Made by a program: the position numbers and the translations under genes. Source: Stylophora pistillata (Eukaryota). From it: a DNA stretch of 64,000 nucleotides. Under the pieces are notes generated by a model, which saw only the letters and a program-made list of their open reading frames with translations, had not been told where the DNA came from and ran no database searches. The stretch spans positions 295,422-359,421 of the forward strand of contig NW_019217875.1 of assembly GCF_002571385.2 (NCBI RefSeq), read 5' to 3'. Position 1 is the first letter of the stretch. Each line of letters begins with the position of its first letter. Below are positions 47,701-61,099 of the stretch, piece by piece.

Positions 47701-50700
47701 CACGATTCTAATAATTCTTTGAAATGGAAATGATAGGAATTGCCTTTTCGAATTATGGCGGAATTACCCTGAACTCTTTTTGAGCATGAACAAGGCAACG
47801 GTTGTGTTCGCGCCACTGGCTTTCATCAAATGGAAAAACAAGGGCTGGCAGATAAAGTGAGAAGGAATTTTCTTGCCAAACTCCAAGATCTGGCCCCGAG
47901 GTGTGATTTGAACGCAAACTTTTGATTTTTTTCTAGCAAGTTTTTATCTTAAAAGATCGACATGTTTTTGGTGTTGCTCTTGGAGCAAAATGCTGGACTT
48001 TGGGATTTGTTGCCATACGAACGGTTCACTGCAATGAAAGTCAGGAATCATTGTGGGCGTTTTAGGTTGCAATAGGTGTCACATCAATGAGCCGGTACAA
48101 TTTACACACTTACATAATGTTGTGTCTTAAGTTCAACAAGAAACAAGTATCAAAAGTAGTAACGGTATTATCTGGACATATCTGTTCACTTAGTATGCAA
48201 AGGGTTAACTTAGCGTGATCTTTAATTAGTTCTTAGGCGACGAACAGTACCTCCTTTTAAGCGAAGTCCGTCAAGCGGTTCGAAAAAATCAGCGAAAAAA
48301 AAACAGATTGTGGCTAACGCCGAGTGGAACTCTGGAATGACGAGAGAAGCCTCACTCCCGTGATCCCAGAGCTCCGCAGGATACGCTGGCCACCATTTGA
48401 TTTTTCCCCTGATTTTTTCGGACACACGAAAAAGAGGAAGGACTACTCGAAGTCTATCTAATTCTTTTAAACTAGCTCGACGATCTCACTCTAGTCTGTT
48501 TATTTCGACGTATTGACTGATGTATTTTCTGTGTGTTTTTACAAATGCCTTGCAATTTCGAGATCTGAAAGCCTAAGCCCATTTCAAAGTTTGAACTCCA
48601 GTTTCTTACATCGAATTCTGGATCCAAATCATAAATGAATTTGTCGAATACTTCATCGAACAGAAAACTTATTTTACAAATCCACGCGTGATATGCGGGA
48701 CACAAAACGTCTGACAGGGTTCGAAAGTTAAATATTTAGTGTCGGAATTAAGTGGCGATTGATTCAGTCTCTACAAGGAAAAGGCAGCCTACTAAAAACT
48801 TACCAGCCGCGTAAATGTCTCCACCATCCAGGGTCACCAGGTCGGCCTCGTCGTTGTTGATTTTTTGTATGCAATCGTCGGTGCTACTTCCGTCGACGCA
48901 GCTTGCATTCACTGACAACGTCAGGTTTTTAGCCACCGCCATTACCTTATCTTTAAATTCATTACACTTGTCTTTCTCAGCAGACAAGGCGCACCATCTA
49001 AACTTGATTTGGTCTGAAAAATAAAAAGCTGTGATAATCGCATCCCTGTATAGTTTTTTCTTCTCTGGTCAAGCAAAAGTATTAATTCCTGTGGGTCTAG
49101 CAAATGCACAAATGGCACAAATGGAAGGTGGGACACGCGCGAGGGCAGGAGCATGCGTCTTGCTCCTCGTGATCCTCGCGCGTTTTCCTCATGCTTCCCT
49201 TTGTTCTTCAAAAAGACATCTGTTCTGCAGGCGAGCTTTATTTTCTTGAAGACTGACTGCCGCACTTGAGATTAACTCAGCATCAGTGAAAAGCTTATTT
49301 GCTTAAGCATCAACGACAGAGCGGAAATGTATTAGTTATATTTAACTCCCCTTCGTGATTGGTCAAATTGGAAAAATCGTGCCATCCAGTTGAACAATCA
49401 GGAACACACTTTATGTCAGTAGGTCGCGTCAACGACCTACTGGGTTCAGAATGAACATGTTGTTTCGCACGACCACAATCCTTTTTGGTGTTTTATAACA
49501 TGGAGAGCCAAAAAGGCTTCGCAAATTCTTTTAAACTTGTCGGTTTTTCGAAATTCGCGCTTGATAGCAACCAAATATTTTCCATAGTCCAACTTCAAAT
49601 TAGTCTCCTTCGCAGCCGTTGTTTGGGCTCGTCACACAACGCTCCCTCCCCCACCAACCGGATGCTTAAACCCGAGCCACATTCCTTTCCCTGGTTTTAG
49701 CCAATCACGATTTCGCTCATATAATTCTGTGTAAGTCCCGTATTCTATCTATTCTATTAGCGGCTCATTGAGCAGAGAAAATGGCAACTCTCAAAGAAGC
49801 TTTTGTTTCGACCGCTTCCAAGTTCAAAATTCCCAGTTTAAATGAACCCCAGAAGCTGGCATTGAGAAAATTCTTTTGCAAAAAAAAAAAAAGATGTATT
49901 TGTAAACCTGCCAACAGGGTTTGGAAAATCCTTGATTTATCAAGGTAACATCACGAGTAACCGATTAACCTTTCACCTATCTTTCGCCGTACGTGATGCC
50001 GTTAGGTTATTTTAAATACTTAGTAACAAAAACATCTACGTTTACGGATTTTGACCTCTTTATAGAATAAAGACGTAAATAAGGAACGTTATCATCTCCA
50101 GTCCTTCTACGAGTTTCCTGAGCCCAAGGATGATAGATAATAGATCTCTGCAGTAGGCATCAAATACTGTATCCATACTTAAACTTGAGCTTCAGATCTA
50201 ACTAGATTATCTTTTTCGTTATTGCCTCTAATTTAATAGATGCAGATTAGTAGACAGATAAAGCCGCCGGAATATTAATCTATGGGGGAGTTAGGATACA
50301 TCCTTAAAAAGCTGGTGATTTTTTTGGCACAAATCTCAAACTAGAACGGGCTTGCATTATCGTTTTCAAAAACTGCAAATGATGCCAAAATAACTAGGAA
50401 ACCGACCTTGCTCATCATGAAGGCGGCATCTACTTTACATGAAAGACGCTTAAAATGCATTTTTTGTAGCCTAGAGGCTCCTCCGCGAGATCAGGCAATT
50501 TTCAAGCTTCAAAGTTGTTATTGCGACCTCGTTATCGAGTGTGCACGCGAACAAAGTTTTCTGCACGATCTTTACTTCAATTTTTCGCTGCTATATTGCA
50601 AAGTTTCAAACCAAGTTGAAGCTTGCATTAATTGCAGGCGATATCTGATTCAACTGATGCGAGGACGTTGCGGTTTAATCTGTCTATCTTTCGCAAGGAT

Positions 50701-51620: not shown

Positions 51621-52356
51621 GTTTGCTGAAGCCGTTGAAACACCCAGAAAACGCCTTGAAATTTCTCAAAGTGAAACCGACGCTTCTAGTGAAATCTAAT
51701 ATGGAAATGTTAGAACTGTCAGCAGGATATGTGATCGTTAATGACAGTTAAGGCCACATTGCGACGCCTTCCTAACACCTAGGCTTTCAAGGGTGTCAAT
51801 CATAGCACTGAGGTTACTGTCAACGAAATCTGCTCAAAATTTCGGTTTTTCGCTTTTTAGTTAGAGGGAGCAGTTAAGTTAAATCTGTCAAAAAAAAATT
51901 TACAAAATCTTAAAAAGAACGCAAAATACGGCTGTAAGAATGTTTTTAAAGGGTTAGCTTATCATCTGCTAAGTGATACCGTCCAGTTTCTTTGGATGTC
52001 CGCGTCAACGACCTACTGGGTTCAGAATGAACATGTTGTTTCGCACGACCACAATCCTTTTTGGTGTTTTATAACATGCAGAGCCAAAAAGGCTTCGCAA
52101 ATTCTTTTAAATTTGTCGGTTTTTCGAAATTCGCGCTTGATAGCAACCAAATATTTTCAATAGTCCAACTTCAAATTAGTCTCCTTCGCAGCCGTTGTTT
52201 GGGATCGTCACACAACGCTCCCTCCCCCACCAACCGGATGCTTAAACCCGAGCCACATTCCTTTCCCTGGTTTTAGCCAATCACGATTTCGCTCATATAA
52301 TTCTGTGTAAGTCCCGTATTCTATCTATTCTATCAGCGGCTCATTGAGCAGAGAAA

Positions 52357-52830
52357 ATGGCAACTCTCAAAGAAGCTTTTGTTTCGACCGCTTCCAAGTT
52401 CAAAATTCCTAGTTTAAATGATCCCCAATGATCCCCATTGAGAAAATTCTCTTGCGAAAAAAAAAAAAAAAGATGTATTTGTAAACCTGCCAACAGGGTT
52501 TGGAAAATCCTTGATTTATTAGGCTCTTCCACTCGTGTGCGATCACATCAACAATCTTGCTGGGCATATAGTTGTTATTGTTTCTCCGCTCGTAAGTCTT
52601 ATGGAGGATCAGGTCAATTGCCTGCAAAGTATTGGAGTCAGCGCGGTAAAAATTAGTTCCCAAGAAGGGATTGACCGCCCTAGTATTGAGTATGGAAAAT
52701 ATTCGTTAGTTTTTGGCTCACCAGAAGCATGGCTCAGGAATGATCGTTGGCGATCGATGCTAGGAAATGGTGTATACCGTGCGAGGTTATGTGCTGTGGC
52801 TATCGATGAAGCACATGTTATAAGACAGTG
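52357..52830 (+). pseudogene. RecQ-like SF2 helicase N-terminal fragment (transposon-borne)
   Basis: DVFVNLPTGFGKSLIY* (Walker A), VSPLVSLMEDQV (Ia), GSPEAW (Ib), AIDEAH (II); stops and frameshift; ends at a GTAAG donor. Confidence 0.85.
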
Positions 52831-53109
52831 GTAAGTCAAGAACCAATTCCTTACTTCTCTTAACGTGCCATTTTAGCTTCGTCTTATGTTATTTAAGTTT
52901 ATATATATTCCTTTTACAATTAAGTCGAGTGGTTAACAACAGGAATGTTTTCTCACTTTCTCGAGGGCATTTGCAAAGCAGATGTGATAGACGTAAGCTT
53001 AATTTTACTTCATGTTTCGCGTTCGAAATGTTGCGATTTATGTAGAGAAATATATTCGTAGTCATAACAGACTACGTTAATGGTGAACTGTAGTCTTGGA
53101 AATGTATGA

Positions 53110-53493: not shown

Positions 53494-53782
53494 GGGAAAT
53501 TTTTTAGATGACTGGCAACTCCAGAAAGCGCCGATGAATTTACCCGGGGAACTTACGTCATTGAAATTTGATTGGTTTTATCGTGAAACCAAAGGCGACG
53601 TGTGATTGGTGCAAACGCGCATTATCACCTGCAGTCACCGTGGTGGGAGAGGGAGCGTTGCGTGACGAGCCCAAACAACGGCTGCGAAGGAGACTAACTT
53701 CAAATAGGATTTTCTCGGGAACCAATGGGAATATCAATAAAGCTTGTTTTTTTTTTGGCATACTAGTGACACAAACTAGTTT

Positions 53783-54352
53783 ATTTTTTTCAGGTCTGAT
53801 TTTCGCTATTGCATAAATAGCGCTATCTACTGCGAAGGATCGTGCATCATACGTATTTAATACCGCAGTTCAAAATATATGAACTTCATATATTCATTGT
53901 ATCTGATTTATCATCACGGGTTTATTACGAATCAACTTAACGGCCTGCTCCCAGTTGGCTTGTTAGCTCAATTGGTAGAGCGCTGCACTAGTATCGCAGA
54001 GGTCAGTGGTTCGAATCCCGTACAGGCCTGATTTTTTTTCAGGTCTGATTTTCGCTATTGCATAAATAGCGCTATCTACTGCGAAGGATCGTGCATCATA
54101 CGTATTTAATACCGCAGTTCAAAATATATGAACTTCATATATTCATTGTATCTGATTTATCATCACGGGTTTATTACGAATCAACTTAACGGCCTGCTCC
54201 CAGTTGGCTTGTTAGCTCAATTGGTAGAGCGCTGCACTAGTATCGCAGAGGTCAGTGGTTCGAATCCCGTACAGGCCTGATTTTTTTTCAGGTCTGATTT
54301 TCGCTATTGCATAAATAGCGCTATCTACTGCGAAGGATCGTGTATCATACGT
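53783..54352 (+). repeat. Tandem array (~2.3 x 249 bp) with tRNA-Thr(AGT)-like cloverleaves at 53957-54029 and 54206-54278; 12-bp TSD
   Basis: ACAAACTAGTTT at 53771-53782 and 54353-54364. Acceptor and D arms pair; T stem is mismatched; a T-tract follows. Confidence 0.85.
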
Positions 54353-55309
54353 ACAAACTAGTTTGTTTGGATTACCGGGGTAACGCGGAGGCTGGTAAAT
54401 ACTCAAGTATGTTAAGGCCTGGCTAGCTAATAATATTACGAAATGCAATTTAGAATGGTTAGGTTTAATCTGTACTCCTAAAACCTGTATTACTAGTGTA
54501 ACTTATCGTCCTTAGAAAAAAGGGATCTAATCTTGCCCAGCCGATGACTATGCAAGTAAAATAGATCTTATCAAAGCAAGGGCTATCAAAATCTTACAAA
54601 AAACATTGGGGGTAGCCGCGCAATATTCCAAGATGATTGGGTTTGAAATAAAAAAAAAAATTCCTGGCGTTGCATGATTTTTAAAAGTGGAGAAAAAAGA
54701 TTTTCCCGTCAATTCCATTTGAATTTAATTTTTTGAAAGAAAAATCAATAGCATATTAAAAAATCTTTAAAATAACAAGCAAATACGATCCCTAGAACAA
54801 GGCAATGTAAGTTTTTATTATCAAAATGACTGCATTGAGGCCATTTGTAACCCTGATCACTTTCACTTGCCCAGCGAAAAATACTTGTTAATAGGTTTTT
54901 CATTGGATGAAATATTAACTGTGTGTTTTATGGACTTTTTCTTTTTGTTTGATGTCATTAAAAACAGGGAGTTATTTCGTTATTTTTTTTTAAATCAAGC
55001 TTTCCTGACACCTCCCCTACAAGTAAGCACATTGACACCAGCGTAGCGCGATTGTCTAGCGCGAGATATGCTATTCCCCTACCCTCCTATCTTAAGTAGT
55101 ACTAATGCATTTGTAGATTGGGAATTTGAATCAGACAAAGAATTGCAAAGTACAGATCCTAAATAGCTTGTCGATGTACTCCAATAAACAGTGAAAGTTG
55201 AATGATATCGCAGAATTTTATTTCTTCATAGTGTTCTTGAGTGTCCATGATTAAGAACATTTCGTAGTCAACAGTAATCAACATGTGCACAGACATTTTC
55301 CCTTTAGTG

Positions 55310-56186
55310 CTACTCTAAGTCGGAAGATCTACAGAACAGCCTCTTCACTGCTCGACGGAATTTTGGCATCCTTAGCGAGTATAAAACCGGATTAAGAGCA
55401 GAGTTAAGGAGGCCAAGAAGTAGAACACCGTAGAACGTGTCATCAGTCTCAGTACTCCGACATTTATACACGATAGTATTGACGACAATTGATGGAAGCC
55501 AGCACAGTACAAACGCGCCATAAAAGATAAAAATTGCTTTTGCGACTTCGTGCTCTCGTTTACGCGCTGAAAGCAACCCTCTTCAGGTTGCATGAGTGGT
55601 TGATGAATTCCTTGTGCGAGGAGAGCTTTGTTAAATTTTCGGATGATTTTGAACATTCGAATATGTAAGCAAAGCATGAAAATTAACAGGAGAAATCCGA
55701 TACCACCAAAGAAAAAGAAGCAACAGTATTCTTCTTTATTTCAAAGGAGAAGTAATGGTATGCTCACGGTAAGCCCAGTTAACCAAATGAAAAGATGTAT
55801 GTCTTCATAGCATTTACGCGGAACAGTCTTCCATATCGCAAAGGCATTTCCAAGAGGATATACCTTTCAATTGTCAGAATTAGCACTGTTAAATTCGAAA
55901 TTTCAACAGCCACAGTTCTCATTACGGCCACAGATTTCAATAACTTGGATCCAGCGTTATCCTTCTCCTCATGTTGCAAGACAACATGTAAAGCCGAAAG
56001 TGGTTCAATTACCATCCGGATAAGGATATCTGCCACGGAAAGGTTCACCACAAGATAGTTAGAAACGCTCCGCAACTCTGGGTCTTTATACACAGCCACG
56101 ACCACCAATAGATTACCTATTGTGGTTATTACGGCAAGCGCAACCATCAGGATCATTTCAATAGTCCACATCGAGACTTCTGTCAT
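55310..56186 (-). pseudogene. Rhodopsin-family (class A) GPCR pseudogene
   Basis: GNLLV, NLSVAD, IERY..PLRY, CWLP and NSALNPVLY spread over three frames. Frameshifts near 55795 and 55575 plus in-frame TGA at 55741-55743. Confidence 0.85.
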
Positions 56187-56801
56187 CTTATCAACCACTG
56201 TAACGAATGCCCAACTATTCCCTTTACATCAATGTCACTAAAGTGTAAAAGGATGAAATAAATGAATAAATAAAAGAACTTTTAAAAAGTAAATACTATA
56301 ATTATAGATCAATAGATATACTGCACACGAGTTCGATCCAGATTATATTTCCTCTCGCTCCCTTAAGTTATATCCAACTATTTATTTATGTAACTCTCGC
56401 ACATTGCGATACCACATTGTGAATGGTAAAATATACATCACTTGAATTGCATGCTTTGTTGCGTTTACTTTCTCCTTCTTCTCCGCTGCACTCACTGCCG
56501 TGACCTTGGTTGATTGTCAACACTTTTTGATCAAATAGACGTATTGCATCTGGATATTCTGAATATGTGGATTAAGTCGCTCGGTGGACTATTTGCCAAT
56601 GGAGAGTGGTGAATGAAATCTCGGCCGATCTGGGTCTGTCAGTCTCGTCTTAAAACTCAATTGACTTTGAGGCATTCTGGAAATTCACTCTGCTCAAGGG
56701 ACCGGAAGGTGTTTTAATCAGCGAGCTTTGCTTCTTTGTTCGTCATCTGCATCTTTCTTTACTGATCAAGTCTGATCTGGCCAAGGGTGTAGTAACATAA
56801 A

Positions 56802-57039
56802 TGAATAAAGGCTGATAGTTTCGAAAGAAACTGTTTGGGTGTGCGTCGGTGGGAGTAACGAAATAATTTGGATATATCAACAAAGTTGAAATGGTAAATT
56901 GGCCACCGTAACGATAACAAAAGCTGACGTTTCGAGCGTAAGCCTCACGACGAAGGGCTAACGTTCGAAACGTCAGCTTTTGTAATCGTTACGGTGGCCG
57001 ATTTACCATTTCATTTTTATTGATATATCCAAATCATTA
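56802..57039. mobile_element. Palindromic Penelope-like terminal fragment with 14-bp TSD
   Basis: TGTAGTAACATAAA at 56788-56801 and 57040-57053; ~75-bp inverted arms (56866-57035) centred on hammerhead-like GACGAAGGGCTAACGTTCGAAACGTCAGC. Confidence 0.78.
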
Positions 57040-57554
57040 TGTAGTAACATAAAGTCTAGTCAAAGCCGCTGACCACTACGAAGGGCAGCGGACTGTAAGG
57101 GGGGGCGGATCGAATTTATGAAAAAATCTGTTGTGTTGAGTGGTGTCGTCTCCCTTACTCGTTAGAGAACGTAACAAAAGGCCCAGTGAAATAAAAATCC
57201 CTCTGTTGATATAAACTTCAACTTGCCTGTCCGCATCTTTTACTAAATCATAGACGTATTCAGTTCACGCTCTTTCACTTTCGCGCTCCAACCGAACGAC
57301 TCTTCTTTATTCTTTCGGCATCATGGTCGTTTAGCAATAGAACCTCAATAACTGTCGTCTTGAATGAAGGATTTCAAGATCTCGGCACTTAATTAGTTTT
57401 GCTCACGATCCGTTTCGTGTGAACTTCGTTTCCATGGTGGTCTGCTCCGTTTCCATAATGACTTCAAGACTGAAGTAAAATAACGTCGTAGCATGGATCC
57501 GAATACTGAAAATCTTTGCTCATGAGTCCTAACCAGATTTTCTAACATATCCAN

Positions 57555-58255
57555 AGCGCTATTTATGCAATAGCGAAAATCAGACCTGAAAAAAATCAGG
57601 CCTGTACGGGATTCGAACCACTGACCTCTGCGATACTAGTGCAGCGCTCTACCAATTGAGCTAACAAGCCAACTGGGAGCAGGCCGTTAAGTTGATTCGT
57701 AATAAACCCGTGATGATAAATCAGATACAATGAATATATGAAGTTCATATATTTTGAACTGCGGTATTAAATACGTATGATGCACGATCCTTCGCAGTAG
57801 ATAGCGCTATTTATGCAATAGCGAAAATCAGACCTGAAAAAAAATCAGGCCTGTACGGGATTCGAACCACTGACCTCTGCGATACTAGTGCAGCGCTCTA
57901 CCAATTGAGCTAACAAGCCAACTGGGAGCAGGCCGTTAAGTTGATTCGTAATAAACCCGTGATGATAAATCAGATACAATGAATATATGAAGTTCATATA
58001 TTTTGAACTGCGGTATTAAATACGTATGATGCACGATCCTTCGCAGTAGATAGCGCTATTTATGCAATAGCGAAAATCAGACCTGAAAAAAAATCAGGCC
58101 TGTACGGGATTCGAACCACTGACCTCTGCGATACTAGTGCAGCGCTCTACCAATTGAGCTAACAAGCCAACTGGGAGCATGCCATTAAGTTGATTCCTAA
58201 TAAACCAGTGATGATAAATCAGATACGATGAATATATGAACTTCATATATTCATC
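57555..58255 (-). repeat. Second 249-bp tRNA-like tandem array, inverted relative to the first (cloverleaves 57598-57670, 57847-57919, 58096-58168)
   Basis: Reverse complement of the 53783 array unit; starts right after a single N at 57554. Confidence 0.85.
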
Positions 58256-61099
58256 GTATCTAAAGATCTCTAGTTCATACATACAGGTTTTGTCTGAATA
58301 ACGAAACAACTGCCGATGTAAATTGTCTAAAAAATAACTGAAACTGTTGCCGAAAGATTAAACAGGATCTGAAAAATTCGTATTAGTGTTTTACCTTCAA
58401 ATTCCATTGACATCTATTAAACTGCCAGCTGGTGTTGTCCAAGCTATAATTATTTATCTTTAATTTACAACTGGAGAAGCTAGGCTAGGTTCAAATTTCC
58501 AGAGAGTAATTCCAAATATCTAGCTTCAAGAGGTCGATGAGGCTTTCAAACGCTTTATGGCTTTCAATCAGTTACCCTTTCACAGTCAACCAGAGTTGCT
58601 GTTGATTTCCCGGAAATTGTCTTTGATTATCTCTTGTCCTCTTGGGATGTCACATGTGATCACGAGAACGGAATGTTAATATTTAACATGTTTGCACCCA
58701 GTAACGTAACGTCACGTTACCAAGTGGCGCATTATTCTTGTCCTAAAAATAATGATAAGTATTATTATCTAAATCAGCAGCAGCATTATTAACTATTATC
58801 ATTATAATCAGGTTTCAGTGTTTTTTTTTTTGTTGTTGTTTAACCACAGCGGCATTATTCGTCAAGCTGTAGTCACATTTTTTGTCAGCAACAAACCTCG
58901 TGTGATCAATCGACACAAATCGAGAGAAACAACAGCAGCATAGCGTCTATGAGACCGATCTGATAACTCTCATAATTTGGATCAAGTTGAAACAACCCAC
59001 AACCACGTCACAGTTTCACATTTCGCCATTTACATCCGCGTGACAAGCTAAGAGCCATGCAGTCTAGTCTGTTTGCGGCTGAACTCTCGGTCCAAACCCC
59101 CTTCGGTTTGGCAAGACTGGTTTTGTGGTGAACGGTTCTCCAAAGAGTCGCCAATTCTGCATCATAGAGTTTCCTAAAGAAAAAACTGACTAGCCTTTTT
59201 CCTCGACTGTTTAACCCTTCAATGTTCGAAGGGAAAGACTTACTTTCAAAGGACTCCAACATCCTTAAATTGAACTGAAAGCTCGGTGAAAGAAAATAAC
59301 AAGCTCGAGCCCAGCCGCCAGCTTGATGCGAAGTCACTTTACTATTCGTCCCAGAGGTGCCTCATAACGCTCATGATCTGACTCGAATCCATATATATTT
59401 TTTCTTTTTCTTTTTTTGCACAAGCCACAAGTCTTTCTGGCTATCATGTACGCCTAAGACATTTTTAATTGTTACCACTAAGTAGAATTATTCCACTTGG
59501 TTCTGGTTAAAACATCAACAAATTTGAAAATTCTGGTTCAAAAGTAGACTCCAGTGATGTACTGTTTCTTGGGCCTGTTGTAAAGAAGAATCTTAAGCGA
59601 CCAGAACTACAGATTCAGTCGTTCCGGGAATGACACAGCAGAGGGCCAATTATATTTGCACACAGGGGTGGAATCGAAGGGTCGAAGCTAGAGATCCAGT
59701 CAGAGTCATTACATTGCGTTCTTATGTAGACCTAATGATGCTCTCGAAGTCCAAAAAAAATACTTAAAGAAATGCTAGGAGGGTTGTCTTCGATGGAGCA
59801 GAAACAGCAGGAGCATTCTATCGATTCCGGGTTTTGTGAATCATTCTAACTTGTAAGTACATTAGCGTTAAACAATAATAATTATAATAATAATAATAAT
59901 TGAAATTTATATAGCGCAAATTCCATATACATGATCAAATGCGCTTTACATGAAAATAAAGAAAATGTAGGGGAAAAAAAAATTTATATATATATAAAAT
60001 TACAATTTTCCTAATGAGATAAGAAATTAAAAAGCCCTAACCAAATGAGATAGAATATTAAAAAGCACTAGGTTAATGAGATGGAAGATTAAAAGCCCGG
60101 GTAAAAAGGTAGGTTTTAAGATTACGTTTTAAACTAGAGAAGGAGTGAAGGCCAGTGAAGATAAAAATTATTTCAAGATTACAATGAGATAAAGGTTATT
60201 TAAAGTTGGCAGCAGTTTAACATTGGATTAAATGGTTGTAGGGTTTGTTTCTGCCATTGGATGGCTGACAGTAATCAACAAAGTTTTTTTCAAAATGTCA
60301 AAGTTCGCATGTCATTGAAAGGCGAGGTAAAAGAAATATTTCAAGAAATCTAGATTTGTCGTGATTAAAAATAAAATCACGACAAATTTACGTTTGTCTA
60401 CGTATCACAGTTACGCGGCTGAAAACTTTTGAAAACTAAAGTAATGACTGACGAACTATCCTCTACTTTCTCCTGAATTATTATTGTCTATGGCCAGTCT
60501 TATAACATGGTTGACCGGCACATTGACGCTGCAATAAAGCGTCTAAAGAAAGGCGGTTTGATCATGGTGATCTAGACGATGCGAAGCTCTCGCAACGGCA
60601 AGATTGGTTGTTGTGAGATAAGTCGGACTGCGCGCGAAATCGCGTACTGAGTGAGGAAAGGGACTGCACAGACCTGCCAAGTGGATCACAGGGCACCAGA
60701 CAAGTCATGATACCGGTCTTCATATAACAAACGACCTTTTGAATAAGGTGCCAGTCTATCACAGGCTACCTCGCAGCATTTCGTCACTCCGGGCTTCTCT
60801 GACAGTTCTCCGCTAGCCATTCAGTTTACCCTGGGTGGAGAATAGCATTGGGAAGAAGCAATTTGGCAATTTGATATGCTTCTGCCGTCGATTGCTTTAA
60901 AGCGACCGGCCAAAACAATGTTGCTTTCAACAACACGTGGGCAGTGGCGTTTTGTCGAAAAAAGGGTGATTAGAGCTCAGAGAAAAACGATTATTTATTG
61001 GGAACAACGGTTTCCATGAACGGCTCACATGAAACTTGCTTTCAAAATCTAACCTCAGAGCTAACTATGACGGTTATCACGCTCGTTCCCCTTCAGTTC

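Follow-up and report, generated by a model that had tools for sequence, protein, structure and literature searches.

SINEs are textbook parasites of LINEs. For Penelope-like elements (PLEs), sections of Craig et al. (PMC8557442) report that tandems are partial, that an inverted copy is truncated at its 5' end and that a tail of 30-40 bp is found on one side only, and present MRC1 as a non-autonomous, head-to-tail PLE with a Chlamys partner; the Naiad and Chlamys clades are also reported there to be without canonical hammerheads. In vitro, a PLE protein acts on both strands of AT-rich DNA, cutting and extending each, two internal reverse transcription (RT) starts on the RNA define the tail, and hammerhead cleavage is not required for activity, according to parts of Frangieh et al. 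(PMC11167929). Inverted pseudo-LTRs (pLTRs), TSDs of 8-10 bp and mobilisation in trans are described in part of Arkhipova et al. (PMC3846280). The window analysed here is a stretch of 64,000 nucleotides from the coral Stylophora pistillata (contig NW_019217875.1) that carries an array of a 249-bp unit. We consider it quite probable that this unit is a tandem retroelement that is non-coding and has a tRNA head, and that the reverse transcriptase/GIY-YIG endonuclease of a PLE likely copies and inserts it in trans.

The focal array (Table 1) is called as a tandem repeat of period 249 at 53784-54353, with 2.3 copies and 99% matches, and the 12-bp TSD ACAAACTAGTTT flanks it on both sides. An earlier reading of the window from its letters had described about 2.3 units of 249 bp between a 12-bp direct repeat, which is confirmed, and had proposed insertion of the multimer in a single event, which is supported. 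Units 1 and 2 are identical, and the partial third unit differs by one C>T. With phase 1 of the unit set at the tRNA G1 (53957), the insertion is truncated at its 5' end at phase 75-77, and its 3' end at phase 147-148 is typical of the "short" end zone of the family. The tRNA-like parts are identified as Thr(AGT) by ARAGORN and match Rfam RF00005 with 48.9 bits. They contain what we take to be Pol III A and B boxes, assigned against the consensus. A possible likeness of the head to tRNA-Ile was probed with one pattern, which gave 0 matches. A T8 tract directly follows the cloverleaf, as had been noted, and the minimum free energy (MFE) fold of the monomer (z = -4.1) contains the three hairpins named in the sequence-only reading (CGCTATT/AATAGCG, ACTGCG/CGCAGT and a third). 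Hairpin H1, the second array and the imperfection of the cloverleaf are features beyond that reading.

Table 1. Features of the focal insertion and of the second array (position 1 is the first letter of the window)
Feature	Position	Strand	Basis or remark
TSD, left copy (12 bp)	53771..53782	+	direct repeat
Focal insertion, 2.29 head-to-tail units	53783..54352	+	
TSD, right copy	54353..54364	+	direct repeat; first A common to element end
tRNA-like head, copy 1	53957..54029	+	ARAGORN, Rfam
Presumed A box, in tRNA-like head copy 1	~53964-53975	+	sequence compared with Pol III consensus
Presumed B box, in tRNA-like head copy 1	~54009-54019	+	sequence compared with Pol III consensus
tRNA-like head, copy 2	54206..54278	+	ARAGORN, Rfam
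Hairpin H1, T8 tract in loop	54023..54047	+	fold, family alignment
Hairpin H2	54053..54071	+	family alignment
Helix H3 (ACTGCG/CGCAGT), nearly invariant	54078..54118	+	encloses short 3'-end zone
Short 3'-end zone, phases 144-149	54100-54105	+	inside H3
Hairpin H4, followed by long 3'-end zone	54123..54143	+	family alignment
Long 3'-end zone, phases 192-199	54148-54155	+	3' of H4
Second array, 2.8 units	57555..58251	-	3' end lost at 1-N assembly gap, 57554
Short inverted arm of second array (head-to-head)	58231..58261	+	ends near long zone

The focal insertion lies between a DEAD/DEAH helicase fragment (52523-52834, + strand) and a 7tm_1 GPCR gene (55310-56228, - strand). Just to its left, 53641-53709 is a short high-copy repeat with more copies at 49588-49656 and 52164-52232. 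In a search for the empty site, contigs of four runs on 53560-53802 give cover that reaches only ~53748, short of the insertion point, and no unoccupied allele was found in them. The T8 (249-bp) haplotype is rare, with 5 units (3 of them within the window) compared to 65 units with T7. Both window arrays have it, and this may reflect local hopping or shared assembly reads. Elsewhere in the window, two tandem peptide deformylase ORFs (PF01327; 12419-13207 and 14812-15495, - strand) are ~75% identical in DNA.

An exact 16-mer of the unit has 5,122 matches in the genome, and the reversed control has 0. Searching with the unit gave 933 candidates, and the 40 that were scored are mostly 98-100% identical and form dispersed arrays of 1-10 units. 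The family is young and abundant and occupies thousands of places in the coral genome, where it inflates tRNA-Thr calls and breaks assemblies. Older subfamilies in the genome have 67-90% identity, and further subfamilies are present at a minimum of 120 metagenome loci. At one locus (L043; G000 C34:1114000-1120900), a 33-bp piece of the unit has been amplified together with flanking DNA to a 54-bp minisatellite of 9 copies, which sits at the 5' junction of an array.

Family counts are based on 60 insertions taken by position; they come from 97 of the 100 places that head the list of 16-mer matches (contigs C1-C3). This sample was used instead of the 44 best-scoring clusters, which are biased to long arrays and have TSDs of at least 9 bp in 10 of 25 clean insertions. 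Every sampled insertion reaches phases ~130-145 because sampling needs the 16-mer there. Outer 3' ends free of N fall into two zones ~50 nt apart in 81 of 85 cases, at phases 140-156 (n = 43) and 185-206 (n = 38), which together make up 16% of the unit. Where a TSD sets the border, these ends are at 144-149 (one at 152) and 192-199 (one at 188). Counted from the 3' end of the tRNA, the zones lie ~70 and ~120 nt further downstream. The 3' ends are smeared over 6-8 nt, and their last bases are often non-matching. Among the metagenome matches listed, many subfamilies stop, by eye, at the same two places.

The 5' ends (n = 66) are uniform round the unit (chi-square p = 0.45). Four are within 8 nt of the tRNA G1, and nine are just after the tRNA (phases 70-92), where ~6 are expected. 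The sequence-only reading had pointed out that the array begins just after the tRNA-like part. This is true of the focal copy and does not extend to the family; because family 5' ends are uniform, the focal start is due to chance. The same reading had taken the phase as a sign of cutting by RNase P/Z or by a ribozyme. The data speak against this: the fixed ends are 3' ends, smeared and of a short and a long kind, as a PLE enzyme explains, and 5' ends have no peak at the tRNA 5' end or just after the tRNA.

Head-to-head insertions account for 29 of the 60. When both flanks are clean, a short end is paired with a long end in 26 of 27 such insertions, and 23 of the 27 have a TSD of at least 9 bp. 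Over all 49 clean insertions, 31 have a TSD of at least 9 bp (mode 12, mostly 12-14 bp); the 18 without one count against the PLE reading. The tally omits 11 insertions that have N in a flank. By comparison, a match of at least 9 bp occurs in 9 of 2,352 mismatched flank pairs. The TSDs of the family are 75% A+T. This tabulation of phases and TSDs in the sampled insertions, of the kind that had been suggested as a check, shows that TSDs are frequent and that copies do not all start at the tRNA 5' end. The arms have lengths compatible with an exponential distribution (mean 225 nt, KS p = 0.29), and an arm of at least one unit is present in 26 of the 60 insertions, at least two units in 6. In 46 of 85 cases the arm continues beyond tRNA position 1 into the next unit upstream; therefore, the template is a tandem/multimeric or a circular tRNA-sense RNA.

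These ends bear on two conventional explanations. One is that the arrays are true tRNA-Thr genes or a satellite that recombination has spread, as the tRNA calls of ARAGORN and Rfam would allow. Against it, the insertions mostly consist of incomplete units that have TSDs and end at fixed 3' positions, the anticodon is not constant (AGT in the focal unit, GGT in a large number of related families), and 18 of 20 family members leave A31-C39 unpaired. We give this explanation almost no weight. The other, a LINE-dependent SINE in tandem arrays, with inversions by L1-type twin priming, would account for the tRNA head with A and B boxes, the TSDs and the 5' truncation. Twin priming yields one 3' end and one internal end; however, both outer ends of the inverted copies are 3' ends at two different fixed phases in 26 of 27 cases. 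The family also has no poly(A) or simple-repeat 3' tail at its junctions, and the head is not its 5' end, which supports the earlier statement that it is not a conventional SINE. The window contains a conventional tRNA-headed SINE at ~11460-11827 (- strand), whose 5' start is fixed and which ends in a short simple-repeat tail. It differs from the unit in that 34 of the best 40 matches among 2,194 genome candidates start at query position 124, beside the tRNA head. Dependence on a LINE is thus highly improbable.

PLE families of the host genome have ends of the kind seen in the 249-bp family. Nep133 has two ends ~93 nt apart, and all 3 of its complete inverted copies combine a short and a long end, with TSDs of 11, 11 and 12 bp. 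NepB has 25 of 43 ends at 484-497 and 16 at 545-550 of the reference, and its complete inverted pairs are short plus long in 5 of 6, with TSDs of 8-16 bp. The tail of the family (~50 nt) exceeds the published 30-40 bp, a point against the PLE reading, although tails of the host PLEs are ~58 nt (NepB) and ~93 nt (Nep133). Because the insertion ends match PLE-type ends, the unit is likely a ribozyme-free parasite copied by a PLE enzyme. Within the window, a NepB 3' end is inserted head-to-head at ~56788-57052 with short and long ends, a 14-bp TSD and a hammerhead-like core; this insertion of the same anatomy is 2.4 kb from the focal one.

The search for a partner scored 150 of 1,590 GIY-YIG and 150 of 1,395 RT candidates. 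Among 90 PLE loci and nine PLE 3' UTRs, no autonomous PLE was found that shares the 3' sequence of the unit. Comparison of the nine UTRs with the unit gave no significant similarity (36 comparisons, best 4/200 shuffles, uncorrected), and a profile of the 3' part of the unit, run on the 90 loci, matched only the repeat's own copies. Similarity to the NepB UTR reached 4/200 shuffles for one subfamily and was not repeated in three others. NepB is a candidate partner on tail length and predicted layout only. A likeness of the Nep133 UTR to the unit, noticed by eye, is not significant (16/200 shuffles) and was set aside.

Retrozymes derive from pLTRs, as stated in part of a recent preprint (10.64898/2026.07.22.740005), and in keeping with this the unit could be the pLTR of an autonomous PLE, amplified as solo tandems. 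The upstream flanks of 31 insertions share only repeat copies, a local duplication and one unrelated repeat pair; the lack of a common body argues against a pLTR of a frequent autonomous element. In addition, the unit is not the end of any PLE 3' UTR among the 90 loci, and short-motif searches in portions of the Naiad, Chlamys and Hydra consensus files (Craig et al. supplement) found no such unit; the Naiad_Amil 3' end is unlike it by eye. We therefore regard a pLTR origin of this kind as very unlikely.

RNA structure was evaluated in an alignment (A2) of 20 diverse family members picked for reaching H4. Hairpins H1-H4 are 90% paired in A2, and 39 cells are altered on both sides; none of 500 shuffles was as high and slid controls gave at most 12, although relatedness of the sequences inflates both the counts and the shuffle test. 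H2 has changes on both sides at 5 of 7 pairs across families. H3 and H4 are nearly invariant and say little on covariation, so the signal is mainly from H2. Covariation of the hairpins, which had been put forward as a check, is thus found across related families. The cloverleaf is 88% paired with one covarying pair (7:66), and the acceptor stem is 94% paired, with compensation at 7:66 in 8 of 20 sequences. The T-stem of the young active subfamily is weak (3 of 5 pairs).

H1 takes the 3' strand of the acceptor stem; therefore, the two exclude each other. In folding predictions, which leave out tertiary contacts and modified bases, mean acceptor pairing falls from 0.69 in an RNA ending at the U tract to 0.06 in a read-through RNA, and 19 of 20 read-through sequences favour H1 over the acceptor stem. 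H1 is thus predicted to mask the acceptor stem in the multimer and to shield it from RNase P/Z, contrary to the processing by these enzymes that the earlier reading had proposed.

Searches of the focal region against Rfam at E up to 10 found the tRNA alone and no ribozyme match, and no CUGAnGA hammerhead core is present on either strand of the unit, in agreement with the earlier reading. In 6 further loci, a single HDV-family match (E 0.14) was rejected as chance because it is far below the gathering score and overlaps the flank. In four raw RNA-seq runs from two studies, 0.05-0.09% of reads fall on the unit, in both directions about equally, and no site has many molecules starting or ending. 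These libraries are fragmented, so they are unable to detect a circle, and an ~80-nt RNA would be lost from them, which limits the search for Pol III start and stop peaks. At 54104 and 54143-54155, loose read ends adjoin a variety of flanking sequences, which is what copies within host transcripts should produce. Unit-junction reads are present, and a circle and an array give the same reads.

A further explanation keeps the PLE as the enzyme and has tRNA enzymes or a ribozyme cut the multimers; monomers would then be circularised, and rolling-circle RT would make the arrays. Uniform 5' ends and border-crossing arms fit such a circle. Because the mean arm is less than one unit, something must regenerate tandems, and this counts in its favor. 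The well-paired acceptor stem with its one compensatory pair and the circles formed by coral hammerhead retrozymes of like size (part of PMC7229834) also agree with it. Among 28 arrays with at least two full units, 17 are internally uniform, some of them for minority haplotypes. However, one circle should give uniform arrays, and 11 of the 28 are mosaics of haplotypes found in other arrays (9 without cases of T-tract length only), although unit order in these is not fully reliable since the assembly has many N gaps at arrays. The lack of a ribozyme match and of a hammerhead core, ends that do not cluster at tRNA processing sites, the defective T-stem of the active subfamily, the predicted masking of the acceptor by H1, and RNA reads without defined ends and about equal on both strands also argue against it. 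On balance, this explanation is rather unlikely. Under the PLE reading preferred here, a circular intermediate and release by RNase P/Z are possible but unnecessary.

In the proposed mechanism, the H2-H4 region of a tandem RNA would be the binding site of the PLE protein, which would cut the two target strands ~12-13 nt apart. Each cut end would start a cDNA inside the unit, one at phase ~147 and the other at ~196, and copying would run upstream via the T tract and across unit borders to a random stop. Joining of the two cDNAs would give a head-to-head insertion, and a negligible second arm would give a single array such as the focal insertion. H1 would form after the U tract is passed, and by masking the acceptor stem it could protect the multimer from RNase P/Z. 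In our judgement, a linear read-through of an existing array, transcribed by host Pol II or, starting at the tRNA boxes, by leaky Pol III, is just on the probable side as the template. A circle is judged rather unlikely, and template jumping between monomers unlikely. Pol III transcripts should stop at the T tract, ahead of the proposed binding region, and the linear model assumes that Pol III reads through this tract. A broader "PLE-SINE" reading describes a coral-wide class: a Pol III tRNA promoter would replace the retrozyme hammerhead, a conserved switch of the acceptor stem against H1, which spans the terminator, would set the outcome, either a short, dead-end mimic of a tRNA or a read-through RNA, host tRNA enzymes would cut and circularise the latter without a ribozyme, and a Penelope RT would roll round the circle. 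Taken as a whole, it is unlikely.

The thousands of young copies record PLE integration, with both start sites paired in 26 of the 27 inverted insertions and a stagger of 12-14 bp. With the family, an open question about how PLEs work gains a defined 250-nt substrate for in vitro experiments. The literature listings searched contain no description of a tRNA-headed, ribozyme-free PLE parasite; Repbase or Dfam may class the family otherwise.

Animal non-LTR retrozymes, in the sections of Cervera and de la Pena (2020; PMC7229834) and of the preprint by Li et al. (10.64898/2026.07.22.740005) that describe them, are like the unit in being non-coding, head-to-tail repeats of ~220-250 bp, present in corals as dimers to multimers, with TSDs of >4 bp and a proposed dependence on PLEs. 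The unit has the tandem units of 150-450 bp, low GC and long TSD by which retrozymes are recognised, and the likeness to them drawn in the earlier reading holds as a kinship in kind. It lacks the type I hammerhead and has instead a tRNA-like head, Pol III boxes and a T tract. Retrozymes produce abundant unit-length linear and circular RNA, whereas the unit is known from fragmented RNA-seq reads, and no similarity of the unit to a pLTR was found.

MRC1-type PLEs share with the unit a non-coding, multicopy head-to-tail organization and PLE anatomy (parts of PMC8557442). They generally have 3' sequence in common with an autonomous family, and none was found for the unit; the parts of that account dealing with them report no tRNA head. 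EN+ PLEs, including PAc (parts of PMC11167929), Pen2a_Av (parts of PMC3846280) and the Neptune-type Nep133 and NepB, resemble the unit in their two 3' ends or tail, inverted 5'-truncated arm, AT-rich targets and TSDs of comparable length. NepB has a tail of ~58 nt compared to ~50 nt, and in both the predicted layout places the short end inside a 6-bp helix and a hairpin ahead of the long end. Unlike EN+ PLEs, the unit has no ORF and no hammerhead, and its tandems consist of full units, where those elements, which are long, form partial tandems. tRNA-derived SINEs are similarly non-autonomous with a tRNA head and A and B boxes; in contrast to them, insertions of the unit do not start at the head (4/66), its T tract is internal, and its signature is PLE-like and not LINE-like. 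Our best reading is that the unit is a non-coding tandem PLE parasite that works like a non-LTR retrozyme or MRC1; it lacks the hammerhead of retrozymes and the head-first start and simple-repeat tail of SINEs.
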